Assembly: GCA_963820625.1 (NCBI GenBank)
Contig: CAWGAV010000034.1
Location: forward strand, 95-64,094
Origin: an uncultured delta proteobacterium
GTDB lineage: Bacteria > Desulfobacterota > BSN033 > UBA1163
Direction: 5' to 3'
DNA length: 64,000 bases
The translations under genes and the position numbers were made by a program. A model generated the notes under the pieces. That model ran no database searches and was not told the origin of the DNA. It was given only the letters and a program-made list of their open reading frames with translations. The first letter of the stretch is position 1. Each line of letters opens with the position of its first letter. Shown piece after piece: positions 5,691 to 64,000 of the stretch.

Positions 5691-6206
5691 CTACCTTCTC
5701 AAAAAAACTCTCTTCTCTACGGAGTCTCTTTCGCCACCGCCTGGTCTTTTTGCTGGGTGGCCGAATGCCACAACAGCCATCAACTCTAAACCCTTACCCG
5801 CTCCTAATAATTCCCCCACCTTCTCTTTATTCTTTAAAATCTCCCCCAACCATACCCCTCCTAATCCCAAGGAATGAATGGTGAGAAGCATATTTTGAAT
5901 GCAGGCCCCTACTGCCTGGACATCCTTCGTTCTGTCATACACTCTGGAATGATCTAAAAAAACGACGATGCAAACCGGAGCCTCTTGAAGGATGGATCGA
6001 GAATGGGTGAAAGCGGCTAAGGACTCTTTCAATGCAGGGGCCTGGATGACGGCAAGCTTCCAGGGTTGGTTGTTCTTCCCAGAAGGTGCCCACAAACCTG
6101 ATTCAAGAATTTGGTTCACCGCTTCATCCGAAACCGCTTCCTTGGCAAACTGCCGGATGGACCTCCTCGTTCTGATGACTTCGATGACCTGATCCTTCGC
6201 TTTCAT
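5691..6206 (-). CDS. Nitroreductase family protein
   Basis: 171-aa ORF. The RRSIRQF motif near the N-terminus, PSGKNNQPW and the length fit the nitroreductase fold. Confidence 0.85.
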   Translation of the reverse strand: MKAKDQVIEVIRTRRSIRQFAKEAVSDEAVNQILESGLWAPSGKNNQPWKLAVIQAPALKESLAAFTHSRSILQEAPVCIVVFLDHSRVYDRTKDVQAVGACIQNMLLTIHSLGLGGVWLGEILKNKEKVGELLGAGKGLELMAVVAFGHPAKRPGGGERDSVEKRVFLRR

Positions 6207-6237
6207 CTTCCATCCTGTGCCTGAATCCTTAAAGAGC

Positions 6238-7380
6238 TCATGAATTTTTCAACTCCCCTTGTTTCTCCTTAAAGGGCAATGAAGGTTGGCTTTCAATCTG
6301 TTCCAATTTAAAACTGAATTTATCCAATCGTCTTCTTGCTTCCTCAAACTTATTCATCGCATTGCTGATATGTTTTCCCACCAGTTGAAAATCTTCTTGA
6401 AAGCCTCCGATGTCTTTTTTCAGACCAGACAGCAAGGCCTGTATCTTCTGAGCCTCTTTCTCAATCTGCAATCCCTTCAACCCCAGAACGATCACTTGGA
6501 GGTACGCATAGAAAGAGTTCGGGGAGACGGGGATCACTTTCTTGGTCAACGCATAATTTAAAACCCCTTTCTCCTCTCCAAACGACTCATCCTTGGTAAT
6601 TATTTCATAATAGACATTTTCTGCAGGAATATAGAGCAAGGCGAAATCATAGGTCCCCTCTTGGGGGAGAATATATTTGCTGGCAATGTCATCAATATGT
6701 TTTTTAACATCTCTATAAAAAATCTTTTTGAATGACTTTTTTTCTTCTTCCGTCTTACACTCAATGATCCGCCTAAAATTATCAAGGGGAAATTTCGAAT
6801 CGATTGGAACAAGTTTTTCTCCCAGCCTCACTACGGCATCGACCCTCTCTCCACTGGAAAATGGGTATTGAAGGCTGTAGAACTCTGGAGGAAGGATCTG
6901 GGATAACAATTCCCCTAAAAATTGCTCTCCCAGTCCCCCTCTCAATTTTGGAGGGCGGAGGATCTCTTGAAGGGTAGCAATGTTTTTACCTACTTCATGA
7001 ATTTGTTCACTGGTCTTAGAGAGCTCTCCGAGCTTTTCTCTCACCTCGCCGATCACTTGTCTTGCGGTGTCGAGCCGCTGACCGATCTGTCCACTGGAGT
7101 TCTGAAGTTGCTGGTTCACCATCTGGAGTTGCTGATTTACCTGTTCATTGATCGCTCGCAACTGTTCGGTAAGGAGAGAAATATTTTTATTAAGTCCATC
7201 GCTCATTTGTCCTCTTAATTGTTCCATCTGCTGTTGCATCATTGTCCACATCATGGGTGAGGACTGATCTGCTTTGAGCTCTTCGAGAATTTTCCTTCCC
7301 TTTCGCTCTATCAGGAAGTAAAGGGCCCCGCCTGCGATAACGATTAAGCCTATCAGTAAATAAAATAGTTCCATCTTCAT
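6238..7380 (-). CDS. rmuC: DNA recombination protein RmuC
   Basis: 380-aa ORF with an N-terminal TM helix, a long Q/E-rich coiled coil and a C-terminal RmuC-type region (ERVDAVVRL..LVPIDSKFPL, LLYIPAENVYYE). Confidence 0.88.
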   Translation of the reverse strand: MKMELFYLLIGLIVIAGGALYFLIERKGRKILEELKADQSSPMMWTMMQQQMEQLRGQMSDGLNKNISLLTEQLRAINEQVNQQLQMVNQQLQNSSGQIGQRLDTARQVIGEVREKLGELSKTSEQIHEVGKNIATLQEILRPPKLRGGLGEQFLGELLSQILPPEFYSLQYPFSSGERVDAVVRLGEKLVPIDSKFPLDNFRRIIECKTEEEKKSFKKIFYRDVKKHIDDIASKYILPQEGTYDFALLYIPAENVYYEIITKDESFGEEKGVLNYALTKKVIPVSPNSFYAYLQVIVLGLKGLQIEKEAQKIQALLSGLKKDIGGFQEDFQLVGKHISNAMNKFEEARRRLDKFSFKLEQIESQPSLPFKEKQGELKNS

Positions 7381-7400
7381 TCCCTGGGCCTATCCCTTAT

Positions 7401-8888
7401 TCAAGGATGTTGAATGATGAGATGTCCTTCCACCTTCTTATCTATTAGGTTAGTAATTAAGACATTCCAAACACTCTCTTTATGGACCTCTTCAAAATAA
7501 ATTGGAAATTCTACTTTGAGGGGGCTTTTCCCTGAGAGAGTGGGAATCCCCTTGATGGTTCCTGATTTTTTAAAAGAAAGCATGAGGGAGGAACTCCCCC
7601 CCTCCCATCTCGCCTCTGTCTTCACCTTTTCTGTTTGACCTTCCCCCTGAGGCCGGGGGGCAGAGAAAGAAAAGGAGAATTCTTCTCTTCCATGAGGCCC
7701 AATCTTGAACGGAAAGATAATGAATGTTCTTTCGAGGACATTATTTTCTAAACGGATATCATCGGAAGGTAATTTAGGAGAGATAGAAACTTTCACTTTT
7801 GAGATCCCAGCAATTCCAACGCGGTAAGGGGGGTCGATGTGATAACGGTTTCCAAAATTGGCCTTTAATGCCTCAGAAATGAAATGGTCGAATTCTGAAA
7901 TCTTTCGGTCGTTCACAAGGATGCGAATTCGAAAGGTAACGCCCTTCCGGAGATCAACTTCACCTCCATTGGAGAGGATGATCATGAGTTCTAAATCTTC
8001 TGTCAAATCTAAATCTTTCACCAAAATGTCCGGTCCAAAAGGCGCTCCATCCAATATCTTCTTCAGGCTGTTATTCCCTTCATTGGACTCCTTCACCCCG
8101 GAAGTAAAGTCGACATGGGCATCAATTTCATGTCGGCCAATAAGGGTTAAAGGGGTCGTCAAAGTGATGCTTCCTTTCACAGGAAGAGAGGACTGATCAG
8201 AAAGGCTTCCTAAGGTATAACTTCCTTTTAGGGATCCATCAACAATGATCTTCAGATTTCCTCCTCCTAAAGGAAGTGGGCTGTCTCCGATATTGGCAAT
8301 GGTTACTAATAGTTTCCTCTTGGGGTTGAGAAAAAGATCAGTAATGGTGAGGTCAGGAAGAAGAGGTTTGATCTCTAATTTTTCTTTCCCTAAAACTTTT
8401 ATAAAGACATTGTTCGCTCCATTTTCTTCGACCATCTGGTCCTCATTATCCACAACGGCCCGGACCTCGTGCTTCCCGACCAACTTGACCGGGGTGGTAT
8501 AGAGTACAAAACCTCCTGGCTGAAGAAAGGTTTGATCCGGGAGGTTTCCAAGAGAATCCCTCCATCTCAGATGACCATCTACATAAATCATCAAACTTCC
8601 AGTACGATAGGGAACGGGTCCTTTCCCAATATTCGAAATCACAACCTCAACCTCTCCTGTTTCACTCAAAGAGATATCCGAAATGATGAGGTCAGGGAGG
8701 AGAGCAGGTTGGGGTGGAGCGAGAGGAGGTTGAATAATGGCTTTCGTGGCGCAACTGAAGAGAAAGATAGAAAAGGCGAAGATCGCAATCGCCCCTTTGA
8801 ACATGAATGAAATTGAGCCTCCTTTGGAACCAAAATAACGCATCACACACCGAAATGCAAGAGATTTTTCCCTTTCCAATCTTGACAC
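7401..8888 (-). CDS. Exported or lipoprotein with three CARDB-like repeats
   Basis: Three repeat starts are visible: LPDLIISDISLSE..VVISNIGKGP, LPDLTITDLFLNP..VTIANIGDSP and GPDILVKDLDLTE..IILSNGGEVD. The likely true start is M29 (8804), giving the signal/lipobox FSIFLFSC. Confidence 0.65.
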   Translation of the reverse strand: MSRLEREKSLAFRCVMRYFGSKGGSISFMFKGAIAIFAFSIFLFSCATKAIIQPPLAPPQPALLPDLIISDISLSETGEVEVVISNIGKGPVPYRTGSLMIYVDGHLRWRDSLGNLPDQTFLQPGGFVLYTTPVKLVGKHEVRAVVDNEDQMVEENGANNVFIKVLGKEKLEIKPLLPDLTITDLFLNPKRKLLVTIANIGDSPLPLGGGNLKIIVDGSLKGSYTLGSLSDQSSLPVKGSITLTTPLTLIGRHEIDAHVDFTSGVKESNEGNNSLKKILDGAPFGPDILVKDLDLTEDLELMIILSNGGEVDLRKGVTFRIRILVNDRKISEFDHFISEALKANFGNRYHIDPPYRVGIAGISKVKVSISPKLPSDDIRLENNVLERTFIIFPFKIGPHGREEFSFSFSAPRPQGEGQTEKVKTEARWEGGSSSLMLSFKKSGTIKGIPTLSGKSPLKVEFPIYFEEVHKESVWNVLITNLIDKKVEGHLIIQHP

Positions 8889-53132: not shown

Positions 53133-53627
53133 TTAAAGGTCCTTAAAAGAACTCTCGATTCGACCCAAATCGGATTCTGCAATATGAACAACGAAAATGG
53201 ATTCCTTGGCATCTTCCATAGCAGAACCGTAGATATAGTCAATATTCACATTGGCTTCACCTAATTTTTTTGCCACTCTTCCGAGCATTCCCGGCTGATT
53301 TACCAACCTAAATACTAACACCTGTTCGTTTTCCACCAGATGGTTGGCTTTCATCAATGCCTTCTCCGCTTCGGGAGCTTTGTCTACCAGTAGTCGGATC
53401 AGGGAATAATCCGAAGAGTCTTTTAAGATACCCCGATAACTCTCAGCCAGGGCAATCCTCCTCCCAGTCTTTTCTCTCATGTTATAAAGCTCTTTGACCG
53501 AATCCTTTGCATTTTGAATGCTCATAGCTAGGATATTGACATTTGCCGCTTTGAGCACATCGCAGAGTTTCGAAAGTTCCCCAGGTGCATTCGTTAAGAT
53601 CACTGAAAGTTGAGTTTTTTTCTCCAT
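53133..53627 (-). CDS. Tandem ACT-domain protein
   Basis: The probable start is M20 (53627), after GAGGGAGGGGG. Two ACT-like units are present (LSVILTNAPGELSKL..; VFRLVNQPGMLGRVAKKL..). Confidence 0.7.
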   Translation of the reverse strand: MEKKTQLSVILTNAPGELSKLCDVLKAANVNILAMSIQNAKDSVKELYNMREKTGRRIALAESYRGILKDSSDYSLIRLLVDKAPEAEKALMKANHLVENEQVLVFRLVNQPGMLGRVAKKLGEANVNIDYIYGSAMEDAKESIFVVHIAESDLGRIESSFKDL

Positions 53628-53781
53628 CGTCCCCCTCCCTCTTCTTAACCCAGAATTAACGAAATGGTGAACGAAAGTTAACAAATTGACGGCAGAAGGT
53701 CAAGCTTTAAAAGGATTAAATGTCACATAATTTTCGTTTTTTTGACATTTTCCTGTCACATTAAGGGGTTAATCTAAAACT

Positions 53782-55737
53782 ATGAAAAAATGGTTGCTGG
53801 CTGATTTGCACATTCATTCAACCTTCAGCGATGGGTCCATGCCAGTGGAGGAGATTGTAGAGATTTATGGGGAAGCAGGTTTCGATGCGATCGCCATCAC
53901 CGACCATCTTTTTGATACCCAATCCCCGAGGAGTCTCGAAATCTGTGAAGAAGGCAAGTCAATTCAGGATGTGGAAACCTATTTTCGCAAGATCGAAGAG
54001 GTTTCGAGTTGGGCCAAGGCGGCCTATGATCTCTTGGTCATCCCAGGCATGGAGATTTGCAATCTGCTTGAAGATTACCATATCCTTGGTATTGATTTGA
54101 AGGAAGGCGTAAATCCAAATCAAGATGCAGAGGGCGTGATCAAAGAGATTCATCGTCAGGGCGGCCTTGCGATTGCTTCTCATCCCCATTTGAAGCTTTC
54201 CTACTTCTTACAAGGGGACACCGTATCTATTCAGAGGCATCCTCTCCATCTATGGAAATATCGGGAGAGATATGTAGGTAAAATTGATGCATGGGAGATT
54301 GCCAACCGCGAAGACCTCTTTCCCATTATCGGATTGGAACGTTTCCCTTTCTTGGCCAGTTCCGATTTTCATGAACGCCATCACCTCACCTCTTGGAAGT
54401 CACTCATCCTTGCCGAAAAGGATAAGGAAGATGTCAAGAAAGCTATTATTGAGAAGAGTGTTAGCCTCTTCTTCTTTAGAGATGGGATAGAAAGTAGTAT
54501 TCCGCCTCAGATCGAGAATCGTGAAGCATTTGGAGAAACGATTATGGACGACGAAAAGGATTGGGAGGGTCCCGGAAAAGCTAAGATCTTAATCGCCGAT
54601 GACGAAAGAGATCTTGTGGAGATGCTCTCTTATAACTTTCAGAAAAAAGGATATAAAACGATCAACGCCTACGATGGATTTGAGGCCTGGGAGAGAATCG
54701 AATCAGAAAACCCTGACCTCCTCATCCTCGACCTGATGATGCCAGGTATTGATGGCTGGGAACTCTGTCGCCTGATCCGTCGTAGTCAAAAAAAAGAGAT
54801 CAATGAGATGGGAATATTGATGCTCACCGCCAGAGCCATGCCAGAAGACAAGGTCTATGGCCTTGAGCTTGGGGCCGACGATTATCTCACCAAGCCTTTT
54901 TCTCTTCATGAATTGATCCTTCGAGTTGAAAAGCTGGTCGAAAAGAAAAGGGCCGTGTGTCAACTAAAAGAAGAAATGGATTCTCTTCATTCCTCGATCC
55001 AGAAGAAGGAAACGGACCTCAAAAGAGTCGTGCATGATCTAAAGAATCCCCTTCTCTCCATGGGGGCTTCCGCAAAAAGAATGCTCAGAAGGAGTCAGAA
55101 CGAAGAGGAAGTCAAGATTCTCAAAAACATCTATGACAGCAGTATCCATCTGACCCGATGGATAGACGATACATTGCTCTCTTCTGATCATTTGTCACAG
55201 AAAAATAAAGGGGAGATGAAAGAAATCGAAATACAGCCAATAGTTCAGCAAGCGATCGATTTACTAAAAGAGGCGAGCAGGGATAAGAATATCGAGATTC
55301 ATTTTGAGGCTTCACCTCCTATCCCTCCTGTTTACTGTCAAGACCAATTATTGTTACGAGCCATCGAAAACCTTTTAAGTAATGCTCTGAAGTTCACACC
55401 GCGAGGTGGAAAGATAGAGGTAGCAGTAACACCCTACATCGGATGGAAAGATGGAGGGATCGTTGAAATTTCCATTAAAGATACAGGAATCGGAATTGGG
55501 GAAGATGAAATCGAAAGGATTTTTGAGCCTTTTTATAGGGGAAGGAATAGTTCTGTGGAGGCCGGCACTGGTTTGGGCCTTTCGTTCGTCAAAGAAGTAG
55601 TGGATTTACATGGAGGCAGGATATTGGTTCAGAGCGAGCCTCAAAAGGGGAGCACGTTTTCCATCCTGTTGCCCATTGGGAAATGTTCAAATTATGAAAG
55701 TAATGTGCATTCGACATTCTTAAAGGGATCTTTGTAA
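53782..55737 (+). CDS. PHP phosphoesterase domain - receiver - HisKA - HATPase fusion protein
   Basis: 651-aa ORF. PHP: DLHIHSTFSDG..AITDH..ASHPH. REC: ILIADDERD..LILDLMMPGIDG..LTAR..DDYLTKPF. H-box: VHDLKNPL. ATPase: NALKFT and GTGLGLSFVK. Confidence 0.85.
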   Translation: MKKWLLADLHIHSTFSDGSMPVEEIVEIYGEAGFDAIAITDHLFDTQSPRSLEICEEGKSIQDVETYFRKIEEVSSWAKAAYDLLVIPGMEICNLLEDYHILGIDLKEGVNPNQDAEGVIKEIHRQGGLAIASHPHLKLSYFLQGDTVSIQRHPLHLWKYRERYVGKIDAWEIANREDLFPIIGLERFPFLASSDFHERHHLTSWKSLILAEKDKEDVKKAIIEKSVSLFFFRDGIESSIPPQIENREAFGETIMDDEKDWEGPGKAKILIADDERDLVEMLSYNFQKKGYKTINAYDGFEAWERIESENPDLLILDLMMPGIDGWELCRLIRRSQKKEINEMGILMLTARAMPEDKVYGLELGADDYLTKPFSLHELILRVEKLVEKKRAVCQLKEEMDSLHSSIQKKETDLKRVVHDLKNPLLSMGASAKRMLRRSQNEEEVKILKNIYDSSIHLTRWIDDTLLSSDHLSQKNKGEMKEIEIQPIVQQAIDLLKEASRDKNIEIHFEASPPIPPVYCQDQLLLRAIENLLSNALKFTPRGGKIEVAVTPYIGWKDGGIVEISIKDTGIGIGEDEIERIFEPFYRGRNSSVEAGTGLGLSFVKEVVDLHGGRILVQSEPQKGSTFSILLPIGKCSNYESNVHSTFLKGSL

Positions 55738-55836
55738 AATCCTTGCCCGCCCTTAACAAGAATTTCATATTAATGTCATCAAATCGTGACATTTATTTGT
55801 TTCAATAAGGATACTAAAATCATTTAGGAGGTTCAG

Positions 55837-56061
55837 ATGAATTGTCATCGCTGTGGTGGTACCATGATTTCCAAGAAGTTCTGTGACTATGGAGGATATT
55901 CTTGGGGATGGAAATGCATCTTTTGTGGAGAGATTATTGATCAGATCCAAGAAAATCTTCAATCACTCAAGGTAGCCGGGCACCCAAAACAAGATAGGGA
56001 GGGGGCACTTTGTGACGACATGAAGGAAGGTGATTTTCCCATCACAAGACAAATTAGTTAA
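55837..56061 (+). CDS. Zinc-ribbon mini-protein
   Basis: 74-aa ORF with CHRC...WKCIFCG (CxxC-x21-CxxC). The RBS is AGGAGG. Confidence 0.6.
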   Translation: MNCHRCGGTMISKKFCDYGGYSWGWKCIFCGEIIDQIQENLQSLKVAGHPKQDREGALCDDMKEGDFPITRQIS

Positions 56062-56119
56062 GTTATGGGGTGATAAGAGGCACTGAAATCATTCTTGGAA
56101 AATCAAGGAGGAGACAACC

Positions 56120-56332
56120 ATGGATAAGAAATTTGCCCCGGAAAAATATGGGATGGTGATCTGTCCACTTTGCAGCGGAAAAGGGTTTTTACTCAAAGGC
56201 TCTGACCAGATTAACATTAGGTTAAGAAGGGTTTGCACAGAATATGGGGGATTTGGTGCTATTAAGAAGGAAGAGGGAACTTTTGGAAGCTTGGGAAATG
56301 AGAATTTGATAGAGAAAAGGAAACTGACTTGA
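56120..56332 (+). CDS. Small protein with a DnaJ-type CxxCxGxG finger
   Basis: 70-aa ORF with CPLCSGKG followed by a degenerate second unit, VCTEYGGFG. The RBS is AAGGAGGAG. Confidence 0.5.
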   Translation: MDKKFAPEKYGMVICPLCSGKGFLLKGSDQINIRLRRVCTEYGGFGAIKKEEGTFGSLGNENLIEKRKLT

Positions 56333-56577
56333 ACTGGCAGGAACAGATTTCGAGAGGAGGTCTTCAGGTGATGATGCGGAGGAAAGTAAATTCCTTTTTA
56401 TTAAGATTTCGATACTTAAAACTTTTGATAAAAATAAATAGCCTAATTGGCCTTAATGAAGTCAGAAGAAAGTTCGATTTTAGTTAGGCAAAATAACAAT
56501 ACCCCGAGAGGGCAACACGTTTTCTAACCTCTTATCCGTTAAGGGCAATTTTAGAGCAAAAGGGACGGAAAGAGCTC

Positions 56578-56967
56578 ATGAAGTCATTTGAATCAAAAGG
56601 AAGAACAGTAATGAATTATGAATTTAAAGAAGAGGGGAATATCCTAGTCATCAAATTATCCGGCACTGCTGAAGTGAACGACCGTCTGCTTACAAAGGAG
56701 TCCGTCACTCCTTATCTTCAAAAATCATACCCAAAAGTGATCGTTGATTTGGAAGAGGTAGGGGAAAAGGAGGCCGTTTCCATCTTGGGGGTCTTGAATG
56801 TGATCAAGAAAGAATTTCAACTCATGGGTGGAGAGGTTAAACTCTGCTCCTTGAGGCCGAGTCTTTATCGTTATTTTAAGGAAAATCGTTTGGATCGGAT
56901 TTTCGATATTGTGCAGCCGGCAGAACAAGCCAAACGAAGTTTTAAGGGGAAAAGCAATGGGAGCTAA
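56578..56967 (+). CDS. STAS-domain protein (anti-sigma-factor antagonist family)
   Basis: 129-aa ORF; the alternative start is ATG 56611. The STAS layout reads ILVIKLSG..VIVDLEEV..GVLNVIKKEFQLMGGEVKLC. Confidence 0.7.
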   Translation: MKSFESKGRTVMNYEFKEEGNILVIKLSGTAEVNDRLLTKESVTPYLQKSYPKVIVDLEEVGEKEAVSILGVLNVIKKEFQLMGGEVKLCSLRPSLYRYFKENRLDRIFDIVQPAEQAKRSFKGKSNGS

Positions 56968-57688
56968 AACAGAAGAGATCCAGCAAGATATCTATCTTTT
57001 AAAAGGGGAAGGAAAAGGTAGTCACAATTATCTGGTCCGTGCAGCTTATCGAAATGTTTTGATCGATTCAGGCCTGGACCAAAATTTTCTTTATCTTCAG
57101 GAACAACTCCTCAGTTTGGGCCTGAAGGTTAGGGACATCGACGTGGTGATCAATACCCATGAGCATTTGGATCACATCGGTTCCAACCGGTATTTCCAGG
57201 AATCTTCTTTGATCGCTGCACACCGTTTCGCGGCAACCAAGATTACTCTCGAAGATCACTATGTGACCCTCTACCGTTCTGGAGACCTGAACGAGGTGCC
57301 GCTCCGCGTACATCTCTGGTTGGAGAATAGATCACTTTTCGACCTCGGAAGTCATACTCTTGAAGTAATCCATACGCCGGGACATACGTCAGGCTCCATA
57401 TGCATCTATGAGTTCAAAACAAAGGTTCTTTTCTCAGGAGATACGGTGTTTGCGGGAGGCACCCTTTCCTATATTGCCGAATCTGGAAGCGTGGGAGATT
57501 ACATCAATTCCATCACACGACTGGAGGCTCGGAAGATATCAAAGATCTTTCCAGGTCATGGAGACATTTCTCAAAATCCCGAGCAGGATTTATCCGAGGC
57601 AATTATCAATGCAAAGAAACTATTGCGAGGAGAACGAAGTATTTCAACCAGCCCTTATCGACCTCCGGTTTTCGGGAGTGCCCCTTAA
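56957..57688 (+). CDS. MBL-fold metallo-hydrolase
   Basis: The start was moved to ATG 56957. The motifs are NTHEHLDHIGSN (HxHxDH), HTPGHTSGS and FPGHG. Confidence 0.82.
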   Translation: MGAKTEEIQQDIYLLKGEGKGSHNYLVRAAYRNVLIDSGLDQNFLYLQEQLLSLGLKVRDIDVVINTHEHLDHIGSNRYFQESSLIAAHRFAATKITLEDHYVTLYRSGDLNEVPLRVHLWLENRSLFDLGSHTLEVIHTPGHTSGSICIYEFKTKVLFSGDTVFAGGTLSYIAESGSVGDYINSITRLEARKISKIFPGHGDISQNPEQDLSEAIINAKKLLRGERSISTSPYRPPVFGSAP

Positions 57689-57795
57689 AGACCCCGTGGT
57701 GGGGCAAATTCGCAGACCCTGGTTTCTCCGCAGGAATCTTGGAAGGGAGGTGAGAAAAAGCACTGAAAAATATGTCTAAAACGAGGGCGAAAGAA

Positions 57796-57839
57796 GTTTA
57801 ACCAAAATGTTAAAAAACCGTAACAGAAATGTAACAAAC
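57796..57839 (+). promoter_or_regulatory. Pho-box-like array upstream of pstS
   Basis: Four direct hexamer-like repeats at about 11-bp phasing: GTTTAAC caaaat GTTAAA aaacc GTAACA gaaat GTAACA. TATGCT follows at 57845-57850 and the RBS AAGGAGG at 57866. Confidence 0.6.
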
Positions 57840-57878
57840 AACAATTATGCTAAAGAATAAACCTAAAGGAGGTATAGA

Positions 57879-58922
57879 ATGGAAAGAGTTTTGAAACTTC
57901 TCACTATTTTATTTGTTTCGTTAATTTTTTGCAGTACGGGTCTTGCGAAAGAGACGGAGCTCATCGGAGCAGGTGCCACGTTTCCATATCCACTGTACTC
58001 AAAAATGTTTGATGTCTATAACAAAGAGTACGGAGTGAAGGTGAACTATCAGTCTATAGGTTCAGGTGGAGGGATACGGCAACTGATCAATAAGACTGTC
58101 GATTTCGGGGGTTCTGATGCAATTATGAGCGACAAAGACATGCAAGAGGCAGTCGCCCCAATCTTACATATACCCATATGTGCGGGTGCAGATGTTATTA
58201 CCTACAACTTAACCGGGGACCCAGAATTGAAATTTACACCGGATATTATCGCCGACATTTTCCTTGGGAAAATAAAGAAATGGAACGACCCTCGCATTTC
58301 TGCGCTTAATCCCGGAATAAAGGTTCCTGATATGGCTGTTACAGTGATACATAGGTCGGACGGAAGTGGAACGACCTTCATATTCAGCGACTATTTGTGC
58401 AAGGTCAGCTCTGAATGGAAAGAAAAGGTTGGAAGGGGTACTTCCTTAAATTGGCCAACCGGGTTGGGCGGAAAGGGCAATGAAGGTGTTGCAGGCTTGG
58501 TAAAGCAGACGCCCGGAAGCATTGGCTATGTCGAGCTCATCTATGCTCTCCAGAACAAGATGCTTTATGGAACTGTAAAGAACAAGAAAGGTAAGTTTGT
58601 GACTTCAACTATCGCTTCTATAAGCCTGGCTGCAGATACCGATTTGCCGGATGACATGAGAGTAAGCCTGACTGATACGGGGGCTGCAGATGGTTACCCC
58701 ATAAGCGGCTTTACCTGGGTTTTAGTCTACAAAGAGCAGAATTACGCAGACAGGTCCGAGGAGAAGGCAAGGCAACTCGTTAAAATGCTCTGGTGGATGA
58801 CCCATGAGGGACAAAAGCAAGCTGAGCCCCTCCATTATTCTCCGCTTTCAAAGAAGGCTGCGGAAAAGGCGGAGAAATTGATTAGATCGATTTCCTACAA
58901 AGGAAACCCGTTAATGAAGTAG
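57879..58922 (+). CDS. pstS: Phosphate ABC transporter substrate-binding protein PstS
   Basis: 347-aa ORF with a signal peptide, GAGATFPYPLY, SIGSGGGI and RSDGSGTTF motifs. Confidence 0.93.
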   Translation: MERVLKLLTILFVSLIFCSTGLAKETELIGAGATFPYPLYSKMFDVYNKEYGVKVNYQSIGSGGGIRQLINKTVDFGGSDAIMSDKDMQEAVAPILHIPICAGADVITYNLTGDPELKFTPDIIADIFLGKIKKWNDPRISALNPGIKVPDMAVTVIHRSDGSGTTFIFSDYLCKVSSEWKEKVGRGTSLNWPTGLGGKGNEGVAGLVKQTPGSIGYVELIYALQNKMLYGTVKNKKGKFVTSTIASISLAADTDLPDDMRVSLTDTGAADGYPISGFTWVLVYKEQNYADRSEEKARQLVKMLWWMTHEGQKQAEPLHYSPLSKKAAEKAEKLIRSISYKGNPLMK

Positions 58923-58934
58923 AGTCGCAGGAGG

Positions 58935-58965
58935 CAGGGTGGAATTTGTTCCCACCCTGTTTTTT
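58935..58965 (+). terminator. Intrinsic terminator/attenuator between pstS and pstC
   Basis: CAGGGTGGAA-TTTG-TTCCCACCCTG followed by T6. Confidence 0.8.
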
Positions 58966-59068
58966 CCCGACGTTTTCAACAACAACTCCGAAATAGAAGA
59001 GCAACCTTTAACGGGATTAAAATCAAAAAGGACGGAGAAAGTGTTTCATTTCAGGACTAATTCGATAG

Positions 59069-60019
59069 GTGGATCTAATGGCCGATCATAGTAACGCAGA
59101 TGTTCTGGCTTTAAAGGTCGATGCAAAAACGGTGAATCAGTATAAATTCGTTATGTCAGAATCTTCCTTTCGCAAAATACTCTATCTTGCAGCAATCTGT
59201 GTGCTGATTCTCCTTGTGGCTATCTTCTTTTCGCTACTGCTTTCTTCTCTTCCAGCCATTCGACATTTTGGTCTGGGATTTCTCGCTGGAATAACATGGG
59301 ACCCGGTCAAGAGCGAGTTCGGAGCTCTTCCTTTTCTCATCGGCACTCTTGCTACTTCCTTTTTAGCCCTTATCCTTTCGCTCATCTTCTCCTTACCCAT
59401 CTCCATCTTTTTGGGCGAGTATTTCAGACATGGTACTGCATCAATGTTTATAAAAAGTATGATTGAACTGTTGGCAGGCATTCCTTCGGTCATTTATGGA
59501 TTCTGTGGACTATTCCTTCTGACTCCCGTCATAAGGGGGCTGGAGACCAAAGTGGGTGTATCGCCTTATGGGGTGGGGATATTTACCGCATCTCTGGTCC
59601 TTTCAATCATGATCATTCCATATTCAGCATCCATCGGCAGAGAAGTGATCAGCCTAGTCCCTTCCGATCTCAAGGAAGCGGCCCTTTCGCTCGGGGCAAC
59701 CAGATTCGAGGTTATACGGAAAGTAACCCTTCCTTACGCCTATTCCGGCATATTTGCAGGTATCCTTCTCGCACTGGGAAGAGCTCTCGGAGAGACAATG
59801 GCCGTTACAATGGTCATTGGCAATTCAAATTTTATTCCGACTAATATTTTTAGCCCTGGCAATACTTTGGCGAGCGTCATTGCCAATGAATTCACAGAAG
59901 CTACAGGAAGTCTATACCTCGCGAGTCTGATTGAGTTGGGACTCGTCCTCTTCATCGTCACCACTATTATAAACGTCATTGGCAAAATCATCATCCGCCG
60001 CATGGGGGCAGGGGTATAA
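59069..60019 (+). CDS. pstC: Phosphate ABC transporter permease PstC
   Basis: 316-aa ORF (alternative ATG at 59078). It is multi-TM and has the EAA-loop region EAALSLGATRFEVIRKVTLP. Confidence 0.9.
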   Translation: MDLMADHSNADVLALKVDAKTVNQYKFVMSESSFRKILYLAAICVLILLVAIFFSLLLSSLPAIRHFGLGFLAGITWDPVKSEFGALPFLIGTLATSFLALILSLIFSLPISIFLGEYFRHGTASMFIKSMIELLAGIPSVIYGFCGLFLLTPVIRGLETKVGVSPYGVGIFTASLVLSIMIIPYSASIGREVISLVPSDLKEAALSLGATRFEVIRKVTLPYAYSGIFAGILLALGRALGETMAVTMVIGNSNFIPTNIFSPGNTLASVIANEFTEATGSLYLASLIELGLVLFIVTTIINVIGKIIIRRMGAGV

Positions 60020-60020
60020 C

Positions 60021-60869
60021 ATGAGAGAATTCCCGATTCGAAGAAGAATTTTGGCGGATAAAACATTCAAAATCATCATTATCCTCCTCTCTTTCGCCTG
60101 CATACTCCCTATGTTCTTTATCATTTTTTTCATAACCAGTAAGGGAATTTCTGCTATCAACTGGAAATTCCTTACCCAGCTTCCCAAACCTGTAGGTGAG
60201 ACCGGTGGAGGAATTCTGAACGCGATCATAGGAACGTTTATTCTGGTTATTATCTCAATTCTCTTTTCTGTTCCTCTGGGTGTCTTCGCCGGCATTTTCC
60301 TTTCAGAATACAGAAAGGGAAGGTTCGTATACTTTACGAGATTGTCCATCGAGATATTGCAGGGAATCCCCTCCATTGTCATTGGTATCATCGCATATAC
60401 ATGGGTGGTCGTACCTATGGGCTCCTTTTCGGCTCTTTCGGGTGCGGTGGCCCTTGGGTTGATGATGCTGCCGGTTATTGTCACGGCAACAGGAGAAACC
60501 TTAAAACTCATTCCGGATTCCCTAAGAGAAGCTTCCTTGGCTTTAGGGGTCTCATATCCTAGAACGATTATAAAAGTGATCCTGCCGGCAGGCCTAAGCG
60601 GCATAGTGACAGGGGTGCTGCTGAGCATAGCGAGGGTTGCCGGGGAGACGGCTCCACTGCTTTTTACCGCCTTTGGCAGTCCGTTCATGAACCTTAACAT
60701 TCTTAAGCCTGTCAATAGTCTCCCTTTGATGATATTCAATTATGCCACGAGCCCCTATTCTGAGTGGCATACGCTTGCCTGGGGGGCTTCTTTTGTTTTG
60801 GTCGCACTTGTTTTAGGGCTGAATCTCCTTACCAAGTTTGTGACAAGAAAATGGAAAGTACAGTTTTGA
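60021..60869 (+). CDS. pstA: Phosphate ABC transporter permease PstA
   Basis: The start was moved to ATG 60021, 1 nt after the pstC stop. The EAA loop is [20 protein letters not shown]. Confidence 0.9.
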
Positions 60870-61609
60870 GGATTGAAAAATTCAGCGCCTTTTTTGGCGA
60901 AAATGCGGTCTTGAAGGACATCGACCTTTCGATTCCCAGGAATAAGATCACGGCTATTATGGGGCCATCGGGTTGTGGCAAGACGACACTCATTCGCTGC
61001 ATCAACCGGATGCACGAGTTAACCCCCGATGCCAAGGTCTCTGGTAAGATTTTTCTGGATAATGAAGACATCTATGCCACGGATCCCATCATTGTGCGAA
61101 GGCAAATTGGGATGGTTTTCCAAAAGCCCAATCCATTTCCCACGATGAGTATTTATGACAATGTGATTGCAGGATACAATCTGAACGGGATCCGATTAGC
61201 CAAGGATGAGAAGGAAAGAGTCGTTGAAGAGTCGTTGCGGAAGGCGGCTCTTTGGGAAGAGGTCAATGGGACCCTTCACAGAAGGGGAACCTTTCTCTCC
61301 GGCGGGCAGCAGCAGCGACTCTGTATCGCCCGTGCCCTTGCTATGGGGCCTGCAGTACTTCTCCTCGATGAGCCCACTTCTGCCCTGGATCCGAAAGCGA
61401 CCTCCCATATCGAGGAGTTAATTTTGCGGCTAAAGGATACAGTTACGATCATTCTCGTCACTCACAACATCGCTCAGGCGGCCCGTGTTTCGGATTTCAC
61501 TGCCTTTCTTTACTTGGGTGAGCTCGTCGAGTTCGGACTAAGCGAAAAGATGTTTACCGCCCCCAAGGATAAGAAAACGGAAGAATATCTCTCCGGGAAA
61601 TTTGGCTAA
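60851..61609 (+). CDS. pstB: Phosphate ABC transporter ATPase PstB (divergent copy 1)
   Basis: The start was moved to ATG 60851. It has Walker [10 protein letters not shown], the signature LSGGQQQRL, Walker [12 protein letters not shown] and C-terminal [10 protein letters not shown]. Confidence 0.9.
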
Positions 61610-61704
61610 GCACGAAAGATCGCCAGTGGAGGTAATTGGACGCAAAACATGATTTGTGGCCTCGGGATCTTCATTCGGGGCCAGAAGCCCAAGGAGATTA
61701 AGCT

Positions 61705-62139
61705 ATGAGCAAAGCTAAAGTCTTATTTCTATGCACAAGCAATTCTGCCCGGAGTCAAATGGCTGAGGCCCTTCTAAGAAAGCATGGGGGAGATCAATTT
61801 GAGGCATACAGCGCTGGACTTGAACCCAAAGGTGTCAACCCTTATGCCGAGCGCGTCATGAAGGAAGTTGGCATAGACCTCAGCCGGCAGTATTCGAAAC
61901 ATGTCAAGGAGTATATGGGAAAAGTCCATTTCGCATATTTGATCACTGTTTGTGACGAAGCGGAAGAAAAATGTCCAACGACTTTTCCTGGATTTGGGAA
62001 GAGGATACATTGGCCGATTGAAGATCCTGCAGCTTTCGTTGGTTCGGATGATGAAAAGTTGGCCAAATTTCGGAAAGTGAGAAACCAATTGGAGCAAGGT
62101 ATCAGGGCTTGGCTAAAGGAACAGCGAGATGGGAAATAA
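61705..62139 (+). CDS. arsC: Thioredoxin-coupled arsenate reductase (LMW-PTP fold), copy 1
   Basis: 144-aa ORF with the P-loop CTSNSARS (CX5R) and the redox pair in [10 protein letters not shown]. The layout parallels B. subtilis/S. aureus ArsC as remembered. Confidence 0.8.
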
Positions 62140-62356
62140 CCCAGCCGCCCAAAAGGCTGAAGAACTCATCCAGGAGTTGAAAAAGAAGTATACCATCGTC
62201 ATCGTCACCCACAACATGCAGCAGGCTGCTCGGGTCTCTGATTATACAGCCTTTTTCTATTTGGGGGAGCTCATCGAAGTGGACCATACAGAGAAGATTT
62301 TCACGCGCCCGGGCCTCAAGAAGACAGAGGATTACATCACCGGACGCTTTGGTTAG
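62117..62356 (+). pseudogene. 3'-terminal remnant of a canonical pstB (last ~72 codons only)
   Basis: [72 protein letters not shown] is the D-loop-to-C-terminus part of PstB. The frame is closed by a TAA at 62114-62116. There are no Walker A/B or signature motifs. The remnant begins exactly where arsC copy 1 ends. Confidence 0.8.
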
Positions 62357-62382
62357 ATAGAAGGAAAGAGAAGAAAGAGATC

Positions 62383-63063
62383 ATGATGGTTACGGAAACC
62401 CATTTTCAAAAAGAATTAGAGGAATTGAAAGAGAATCTCCTAAAGATGGCGGCGATGGTAGAAGAGGCCATCCGTGATGCGGTACAATCTCTCGTTAAAA
62501 GAGATTCTGATCTTGCCCAGAGGACGTTTGAGTTTGAAGATCGAATTAACAAATTGGAAATCGCCATCGATGATGTGTGCTTGAAACTTCTCGCTTTAAG
62601 GCAACCGATGGCAGCTGATCTCCGCTTCATTACCTCGGCGATGAAGATCATCACCGACCTGGAAAGAATGGGTGATCAGGCAGTGAATATTGCCGAGCGC
62701 GCCATCTCCTTAAACCAGGAGCCTCAACTCAAACCATATATCGATATTCCTCGAATGGCTGAGATTGCCAAATCGATGGTCAAGGATGTCTTGGATGCTT
62801 TTGTAAACCGGGACTCCAAACTGGCTCGTTCCGTTTGCGAGAGGGATGATGTGGTCGATGGGTTAAACGATCAGGTGGTGAGAGAACTACTTACCTATAT
62901 GATGTCTGATCCAAAGACCATTACCCGGGCAGTCCACCTGATAATCGTTGCCCGATGCCTGGAGAGAATTGCAGACCATGCCACGAATATCGCTGAAGAT
63001 GTGATCTTTATGGTTGATGCCCTCGTCATTAAACATCATGCTGACGTTAAAGAAGAGGGATAA
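62383..63063 (+). CDS. phoU: Phosphate signalling regulator PhoU
   Basis: 226-aa ORF with two PhoU repeats carrying the E(D)xxxD-type motifs (DLERMGDQAVNIAE and CLERIADHATNIAE). Confidence 0.92.
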   Translation: MMVTETHFQKELEELKENLLKMAAMVEEAIRDAVQSLVKRDSDLAQRTFEFEDRINKLEIAIDDVCLKLLALRQPMAADLRFITSAMKIITDLERMGDQAVNIAERAISLNQEPQLKPYIDIPRMAEIAKSMVKDVLDAFVNRDSKLARSVCERDDVVDGLNDQVVRELLTYMMSDPKTITRAVHLIIVARCLERIADHATNIAEDVIFMVDALVIKHHADVKEEG

Positions 63064-63075
63064 AGGAGATGGCCG

Positions 63076-63507
63076 ATGAGCAAAATCAAAGTTCTTTTTA
63101 TATGCACAGGCAATTCGGCCCGAAGTCAAATGGCCGAGGCCTTCCTAAGGAAATATGGGGGAGCCGATTTTGAGGCGTACAGCGCAGGAACAGAGCCGAA
63201 GGGTATCCACCCATATGCTGAGCGTGTCATGGAAGAAGTTGGAATAAGTCTCAGCAGTCATTACTCTAAACACCTCAAAGAATATATGGGGAAAATACAC
63301 TTCGCCTATATGATTATTCTGTGCGAAGAAGGTGAGAAACAGTGCCCCACGACATTTCCTGGAATCGTTCAGAGATTGCACTGGTCTTTTGAAGACCCTT
63401 CAACAATGGTGGGATCCGATGACGAAAAGTTGATGAAGTTTCGAGAAGTGAGGGACAAGATAGAAGAACACATCAAAGATTGGTTAGTTAAAAAAAAGGC
63501 GGTATGA
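63076..63507 (+). CDS. arsC: Thioredoxin-coupled arsenate reductase (LMW-PTP fold), copy 2
   Basis: 143-aa ORF with CTGNSARS and LCEEGEKQCP. By eye it shares roughly two-thirds of its residues with copy 1. Confidence 0.8.
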   Translation: MSKIKVLFICTGNSARSQMAEAFLRKYGGADFEAYSAGTEPKGIHPYAERVMEEVGISLSSHYSKHLKEYMGKIHFAYMIILCEEGEKQCPTTFPGIVQRLHWSFEDPSTMVGSDDEKLMKFREVRDKIEEHIKDWLVKKKAV

Positions 63508-63661
63508 CTACTATTCATCCCACTTAATTTTTGCCTCGAATAATAAATAGACATCAGTCAACCTTCCCCTATCCTTCCAATAGAAATTACTTGATCAGAA
63601 GATCATAATCTGGTAATTTCAAACGGAATCGAAACATTTCACTCTCCATGAAAGTGTTCCA

Positions 63662-64000
63662 ATGACAGAATCGAATCCCATCGTAAAGATGGAGACACAA
63701 GGGCTTCATTTCTATTACGGGTCTAACCATGCCCTCAAAAATATCAACATTGTTATCAGAGAGCGCCAGATCACTGCCTTGATCGGTCCTTCTGGATGTG
63801 GGAAATCGACTTTTCTCCGAACCCTCAACCGGCTAAACGAACTCATCCCTAACACACGTATTGAAGGAACCGTTACACTCGACGCAGAGGATATCTATCA
63901 CTCGGATATGGATGTCGTTTCCCTCCGGCAGAGGGTTGGGATGGTCTTTCAACGCCCCAACCCATTTCCAAAGAGTATTTTTGAAAATGTGGCCTTTGGT
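63662..64000 (+). CDS. pstB: PstB (canonical copy 2); 5' part only, runs off the window
   Basis: Hand translation from ATG 63662 gives [71 protein letters not shown]...[22 protein letters not shown]. Confidence 0.88.

Follow-up and report, generated by a model that had tools for sequence, protein, structure and literature searches.

We analysed a 64,000-nucleotide (nt) stretch of DNA, hereafter the window, from an uncultured delta proteobacterium (assembly GCA_963820625.1, contig CAWGAV010000034.1). Towards its right end lies a phosphate transport (pst) locus. Within this locus, a 75-codon open reading frame (ORF), which we call the stub, sits between an arsC-like gene (arsC1) and phoU1 and resembles only the 3' end of pstB. 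We consider it probable that the stub is the leftover 3' end of a resident gene, pstBx, which would have been cut when a pstSCAB-arsC cassette replaced the resident pst genes. The stub would then most likely be a very young pseudogene. This reading is built on a mosaic of sequence identity, seen in one contig, on an intact ortholog in relatives, and on a junction between arsC1 and the stub that is shared with a second lineage.

The window covers bases 95-64094 of a 114.9-kb contig. The metagenome-assembled genome (MAG) to which the contig belongs has 2.34 Mb in 35 contigs and is 71% complete. We read the locus past the window end along the same contig and kept all positions in window numbering. 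The features on which the argument turns are the following.

62129..62356, + strand: pstBx stub, a 75-codon ORF; homology to PstB runs from about 62144-62158 to the stop.
57637..62141, + strand: putatively transferred cassette, made up of the 3' end of the MBL-hydrolase gene, a Pho-box-like promoter region, pstS-C-A-B1, a 95-nt spacer and arsC1.
57614..57636, + strand: left switch interval, within the final ~75 nt of the gene for the MBL hydrolase, placed by a three-way alignment and a mismatch list.
62168..62196, + strand: right switch interval, inside the stub, placed by a six-way alignment and mismatch lists.

The stub and its intact counterpart

The gene order is pstS-pstC-pstA-pstB1, arsC1, the stub, phoU1, arsC2 and a complete pstB2 that crosses the window end. 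An earlier note on this DNA had listed these ORFs in this order, and all of them lie where it placed them. It had also predicted a full pstB2 past 64000, perhaps followed by a second phoU. The full pstB2 is there (it ends at 64432), and so is a second phoU, but only after another pstSCAB set: beyond pstB2 the contig carries a second full pstS-pstC-pstA-pstB3-phoU2 set at 64562-68588.

Only the end of the PstB model, positions 179-248 out of 248, is covered by the stub (E 1.5e-29), which agrees with the earlier description of a remnant lacking the N-terminal ATPase core. Its score against TIGR00972 is 103 bits, below the cut-off of 343. It gives no Pfam ABC_tran match and contains no Walker A, Q-loop, signature or Walker B motif. 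The ATG of the stub overlaps the arsC1 stop codon, and the first codons (MGNNPAAQ) are specific to the junction.

At the amino acid (aa) level the stub is 68.6% identical to pstB2, 60% to pstB1 and 54% to pstB3. It is nearer to pstB2 than to pstB1, as the earlier note expected, but it does not behave as a pstB2-like copy: pstB2 is its best nucleotide match among the pstB genes of its own genome, at only 78% over 110 nt. The three full pstB genes of this genome are mutually only about 50% identical. We built a PstB tree of 42 sequences, drawn from this genome, from 14 relatives and from metagenome contigs, and the stub fell outside the pstB1 and pstB2 clades. Together with the intact pstBx genes of G004, L044 and L045 it forms a pstBx clade (support 99/95) that stands apart from those of pstB1, pstB2, pstB3 and 'y'. 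pstB1 itself groups with the pstB genes of G005, G010, G012, G013 and G024 (support 100/100). The phylogeny indicates that the stub is a copy of none of pstB1, pstB2 and pstB3, and that it belongs to a fourth clade, pstBx.

Relatives carry the whole gene. G004, the closest sampled genome, is 81-94% identical in nt to the window across the neighbouring 14 kb. Its contig C150 carries a histidine kinase (HK) gene, a frameshifted MBL gene, pstSx, pstCx, pstAx, an intact 253-aa pstBx, pstB2 and pstS, which puts an intact pstBx at the stub's genomic position, between pstAx and pstB2. Stub positions 62158-62355 are 93% identical in nt to the tail (about 200 nt) of this G004 gene. On the JGI metagenome contig L044 (sample 3300047181), phoU1 is preceded by an intact pstBx, of which at least 128 codons are present. 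This pstBx retains the LSGGQQQRL signature and Walker B, and L044 is 99.2% identical in nt to window positions 62158-62902. L044 adds what appears to be the window's own lineage in its pre-replacement state.

The cassette and its switch points

In other samples, 11 contigs of Logan, ENA and JGI assemblies have the same arsC1-stub-phoU arrangement; exact-protein look-ups brought them to light. These contigs are 96-100% identical to one another and represent one population, sister to the window's lineage, which we name lineage S. Its layout is ACT-HK-STAS-MBL-pstSa-Ca-Aa-B1-arsC1-stub-phoU-pstB2-pstS-C-A-B3-phoU2, with no arsC2.

Window positions 57637-62141 differ from lineage S at 7 positions in 4.5 kb (99.85% identity). 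Against the same S contigs, the flanks are 73.8% identical on the left (53272-55691) and 76.7% on the right (63565-68587), and phoU1 is only 75% identical in nt to the lineage S phoU. The discontinuity between cassette and flanks is sharp, as it is in a horizontally exchanged segment. A foreign pstSCAB1-arsC1 block inserted into a native pstB had been the second choice of the earlier note, and it is this choice that the near-identical tract with flanks of about 75% favours. The comparison of base composition that the note suggested did not set the block apart. There is no contrast in GC content or in GC content at third codon positions (GC3); GC is 0.44-0.50 throughout, against 0.456 for the genome. 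This is expected for an exchange within one family.

To the left of the interval 57614-57636 the window is G004-like, and to the right of it the window is identical to lineage S. The last mismatches between the window and lineage S before the identical tract are at 57613 and 57636, and homology to G004 ends at about 57633. Upstream of the interval 62168-62196 the window has S-type bases, and downstream it has the bases of L044's intact pstBx allele. The join of arsC1 to pstBx is at most a few bases away from the stop codon of arsC1 and is the same in the window and in all S contigs, except for a C/T difference at 62142. As the join is shared, it was presumably made once and inherited with the cassette.

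Incoming and resident genes

The operon type to which the cassette belongs, type a (pstS-C-A-B1-phoU-arsC), occurs at 74-79% nt identity in G005, G010, G012, G013 and G024, and also in L047. Orthologs of type-a pstS are found at 74-78% nt identity in G005, G010, G012 and G013. In G012 the type-a operon stands behind the same HK-STAS-MBL genes as in the window. Unlike these relatives, the cassette has no phoU between pstB1 and arsC1; homology to G012 ends at 61610 and restarts at 61691. The arsC1 gene is 100% identical in the S contigs.

The order phoU-arsC-pstB2 is found in L047 and the adjacency arsC-pstB2 in G014, and many genera keep pstB2-pstSCA-pstB3-phoU2 together as one set. These arrangements argue that phoU1, arsC2 and everything to their right are resident. 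By gene order and identity, then, arsC1 appears to have arrived with the cassette, and arsC2, phoU1 and the pstB2 operon appear to be resident. The phoU and arsC trees were star-like and unresolved and cannot assign an origin to phoU1 or arsC2. G020 carries yet another pstSCAB type ('y') in the slot between MBL and phoU/pstB2. With types a, x and y counted together, at least three unrelated and interchangeable transporter types occupy this slot in the family.

The two ArsC proteins are 67% identical in aa, as the estimate of about two-thirds in the earlier note had it. The ArsC proteins of relatives are equally close or closer (67-76%), and the arsC tree does not join arsC1 with arsC2. Both proteins pass Pfam LMWPc, but neither reaches the TIGR02691 cut-off for thioredoxin-coupled ArsC (131 bits for arsC1 and 128 for arsC2, against 174.3). 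Both have a CX5R P-loop and a Cys pair (CTSNSAR and CDEAEEKC in arsC1; CTGNSAR and CEEGEKQC in arsC2), which we take to have the roles of the CX5R loop and the Cys82/Cys89 pair of pI258 ArsC. An arsC gene beside pst would be a reasonable arrangement, since arsenate enters through Pst. The genes of the locus and the spacer are as follows.

57879..58922, + strand: pstS of type a, 347 aa; TIGR00975 371 bits against a cut-off of 205.
59078..60019, + strand: pstC of type a, BPD_transp_1; 313 aa according to the gene call on identical S contigs.
60021..60869, + strand: pstA of type a, BPD_transp_1; 282 aa according to the gene call on identical S contigs.
60851..61609, + strand: pstB1, a complete type-a PstB of 252 aa; 351.5 bits against the TIGR00972 cut-off of 343.2, model positions 2-248. 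The earlier note had called it divergent but complete, and it is.
61610..61704, + strand: pstB1-arsC1 spacer, 95 nt; the site of phoU in relatives with the same operon type.
61705..62139, + strand: arsC1, a thioredoxin-type ArsC-like low-molecular-weight phosphatase gene (PF01451), part of the cassette.
62383..63063, + strand: phoU1, the putatively resident phoU that follows pstBx; two PF01895 stretches; 99.2% identical in nt to the phoU behind the intact pstBx of L044; 242 bits against the TIGR02135 PhoU cut-off of 130.
63076..63507, + strand: arsC2, the putatively resident ArsC-like gene.
63662..64000 and on to 64432 past the window, + strand: pstB2, complete, 256 aa; TIGR00972 384.4 bits, positions 2-248; first gene of the family-conserved pstB2-pstS-pstC-pstA-pstB3-phoU2 set.

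A model for the origin of the stub

Based on these comparisons, we propose a model in which the resident locus of the window's Syntrophaceae-like lineage read HK-STAS-MBL-pstSx-Cx-Ax-Bx-phoU1-arsC2, followed by pstB2-pstS-C-A-pstB3-phoU2. A cassette would then have recombined into this locus, bringing its own Pho-box promoter region, the type-a pstS-C-A-B1 genes, arsC1 and an arsC1-pstBx junction that already existed. We place one crossover in the last ~75 nt of the MBL gene and the other about 30-55 nt into the pstBx tail. The identity of about 22-29 nt at the switches is near the minimum length for efficient RecA-dependent homologous recombination. The replacement would have deleted pstSx-Cx-Ax and the 5' two-thirds of pstBx.

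We believe that the junction itself was formed once and earlier, in a donor lineage, when an illegitimate joining event fell right at the stop codon of arsC1, and that it now moves with the cassette. The model takes transfer to have been into the window's lineage and homologous recombination to have been the mechanism. It also supposes that the cassette lost a phoU of its own and that the stub is without function.

Alternative explanations

Several observations weigh against this model. The stub ORF is intact in 12/12 sequences, with neither stops nor frameshifts, so that of two marks of a pseudogene one, an intact ortholog in relatives, is present and the other, signs of decay, is absent. The three stub haplotypes differ at 25/217 positions but in only 4/75 residues (21 synonymous and 4 non-synonymous differences), an excess which, taken alone, looks like purifying selection. 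A search of the 95-nt pstB1-arsC1 spacer for the scar of a phoU deletion returned chance 7-11-mers only. No donor with a natural pstB1-arsC order was found; among species-representative genomes, the nearest pstB1 is 88% identical in aa and is always followed by phoU. Nothing similar to the ~20 junction-specific bases (62140-62160) occurs downstream of the arsC genes of relatives; a resemblance to a pstB allele of the 'DPTAAQKIEEL' type, such as P0023, is not proven. Finally, the combination specific to the window, that is the junction with its own stub allele, phoU1 and arsC2, was found in no other assembly. Exact-protein look-ups with the window stub, phoU1 and arsC2 gave no match in other assemblies, and the DNA pattern of the window-specific junction haplotype gave none in JGI contigs, where the general junction pattern returned only two S contigs, both already known.

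The intact reading frame and the synonymous excess could mean that the stub is a retained, translated mini-protein: the C-terminal 70 residues of PstB including the H-loop, coupled to arsC1 and acting on PhoU/PstB signalling. The stub also directly precedes phoU, and its ATG, which overlaps the arsC1 stop, has AAGGA 8 nt upstream. By binding to PhoU or to a partner PstB, the 75-residue product might adjust Pho signalling to the incoming transporter, and its translation would account for a junction that stays intact every time the cassette moves. We think both the retained mini-protein and this proposed binding very improbable. Each stub haplotype matches a different intact pstBx allele: the window residues H53, G62 and K65 are those of the P0005/L044 allele, and the S residues R53, S62 and R65 are those of P0009/L045. 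The synonymous bias would therefore be inherited from working genes through recombination, and most simply a crossover falls within the stub each time the cassette enters a new background. One of the S haplotypes is itself a mosaic. In the alignment the window stub is unchanged from the intact L044 allele, which leaves no time for decay, and the fragment has no ATP-binding motif of any kind. A search for stub homologs as a mini-protein family yielded thousands of short PstB C-terminal products. These are mostly artefacts of contig ends or frameshifts, and we rejected the family.

An assembly error must be considered at two levels. The arsC1-stub junction is not a misassembly, because it occurs in at least 11 independently assembled contigs of other samples; this answers the concern of the earlier note about positions 62100-62140. 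The MAG contig as a whole might instead be a chimera that switches between its own lineage, with intact pstSx-Cx-Ax-Bx-phoU1-arsC2, and the co-occurring lineage S. In that case the stub would be absent from this organism, yet real in lineage S. The MAG is incomplete and fragmented (71% complete, 35 contigs), the cassette is 99.85% identical to S contigs, and a near-identical strain with intact pstBx-phoU1 exists. Moreover, the window's exact haplotype is seen nowhere else, and its mosaic is that of one MAG contig. We nevertheless regard a chimera as unlikely. The switches fall in stretches of identity of ~22 nt (57614-57636) and 29 nt (62168-62196), shorter than the final k-mers of the usual metagenome assemblers and far shorter than reads. 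With identity of at most 30 nt, a chimera of the de Bruijn graph would be unlikely, and read support across the switches is to be expected. In addition, the interleaved pattern to the left, S-like at 56650-57090 and own-like at 57090-57636, would need more switches in short identities.

The least credible explanation is the one that the earlier note preferred, in which an arsC-pstB-phoU unit was duplicated in tandem in this genome and then lost about 0.7 kb. It would account for a 10-kb stretch that holds two arsC and two phoU genes along with several pstB genes, and phoU1 and phoU2 are 87% identical in nt and 94.6% in aa. But PhoU is about 80-94% identical family-wide at any position (the L044 phoU is 98.8% identical to phoU1), so the similarity of phoU1 and phoU2 is no sign of local duplication. 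The stub is 54-69% identical in aa to the resident pstB genes but 93-99% identical in nt to the pstBx of relatives. At 67% identity, arsC1 and arsC2 are not sisters, each being nearer to the arsC of relatives, and pstB2-pstSCAB3-phoU2 is conserved as a unit in many genera. Duplication followed by deletion runs counter to both the pstB tree and the intact ortholog that relatives carry, and we rejected it.

Other features of the region

Pho-box-like repeats lie upstream of pstS at 57796-57847, inside the putative cassette. The region is kept at 84-90% before pstS in G012 and G003, and G013 has another match. A promoter and terminator scan of the region gave counts not above those of shuffled sequence. 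The junction-specific bases 62140-62161 contain a small hairpin (CAGCC-8 nt-GGCTG), which scored as terminator-like on the minus strand in the scan whose counts did not exceed shuffles.

The left neighbourhood shows further signs of exchange. In the STAS/MBL genes, 56650-57090 is 99% identical to lineage S, whereas 57090-57636 is only 90% identical, with differences at third codon positions. By these identities, 56650-57090 is probably a second recombination patch, separate from the main cassette. Between HK and STAS lie about 840 nt (55738-56577) with two small Cys-rich, zinc-ribbon-like ORFs at 55837-56061 and 56120-56332. These ORFs are absent from lineage S, where the gap between HK and STAS is 20 nt, and from G004. 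The G004 MBL gene (L027, which is G004:C150, minus strand, 5737-6423 and 6688-7998) has an internal deletion and a frameshift after ...ICIYEF, and STAS is missing. The HK of the same minus-strand region is near-identical to the window in its PHP/receiver part and about 60% identical in its kinase part. This G004 region appears to be one more mosaic of the neighbourhood.

The second, resident Pst set, considered here from 63662 to 67872, encodes two PstB paralogs, and its gene order, pstB2-pstS-pstC-pstA-pstB3-phoU2, is unusual. pstB2 has LTLGQQQRL in place of the LSGGQ signature, and pstB3 has the variants GPARSGKT and VPHN. The pstB2-first order and the degenerate signature are also found in G004 and G020. 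These features suggest that the set may encode a heterodimeric ATPase with one degenerate site.

Several pstB genes of relatives are split into two overlapping or adjacent ORFs: pstB2 of G020 (L018 6344-7115), pstB1 of G005 (L014 8012-8858) and pstB1 of G013 (L015 3788-4706). These may be either assembly frameshifts or further pst pseudogenes. The arsC of G005 is without its 5' part.

Relation to known systems

The locus resembles the pstSCAB-phoU operon of the E. coli type in that phoU comes after pstS-pstC-pstA-pstB, the proteins pass the PstS, PstB and PhoU models, and a Pho-box-like array precedes pstS. It differs in that the cassette has no phoU after pstB1 and has an ArsC-like gene appended. 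The phoU that follows would be that of the displaced resident operon, with arsC1 and a dead pstB fragment between it and pstB1. Two pstB genes in one operon are known, for example, from Bacillus subtilis (pstBA/pstBB), and the neighbouring resident set likewise has two PstB paralogs, pstB2 and pstB3. In that set, as distinct from the stub, pstB2 stands before pstS rather than after pstA and has LTLGQ for LSGGQ.

When homologous recombination between related bacteria replaces an operon or cassette, it is known to leave gene remnants, as in the switching of capsule and O-antigen loci and in transformation mosaics. The locus studied here shares with such cases conserved flanking genes in which crossovers fall, sharp discontinuities in identity and a truncated resident gene at one border. 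Here the swapped unit is a high-affinity phosphate transporter with an arsenate-reductase-like gene, the partners are uncultured and Syntrophaceae-like with flanks that diverge by ~25%, and the truncation junction would have been inherited with the cassette. The event is a recombination scar from operon replacement. It is of a known kind and reveals no new mechanism.

Phosphate-metabolism genes lie in arsenic islands according to a preprint (bioRxiv 10.1101/870428), and linkage of ars and pst genes is already described there. The physical linkage of ars and pst/phoU genes is common to those islands and to our locus. Our locus differs in having no arsR, arsB/acr3 or arsA, only single ArsC-like genes at the 3' ends of pst operons, and such a single ArsC-like gene at a pst operon 3' end recurs across the family.

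Annotators should mark the 75-codon ORF as a fragment of pstB and not as a gene, and should not take the presence of two arsC copies for a duplication. For the biology of this family, the locus offers what we take to be a clean case from nature in which a whole operon was replaced in a single chromosomal slot, with a scar that is unusually well documented. The ArsC-carrying type is near-identical in two lineages that are otherwise ~25% different. This near-identity points to a recent exchange of phosphate-uptake genes, which was possibly selected and is perhaps tied to arsenate exposure.

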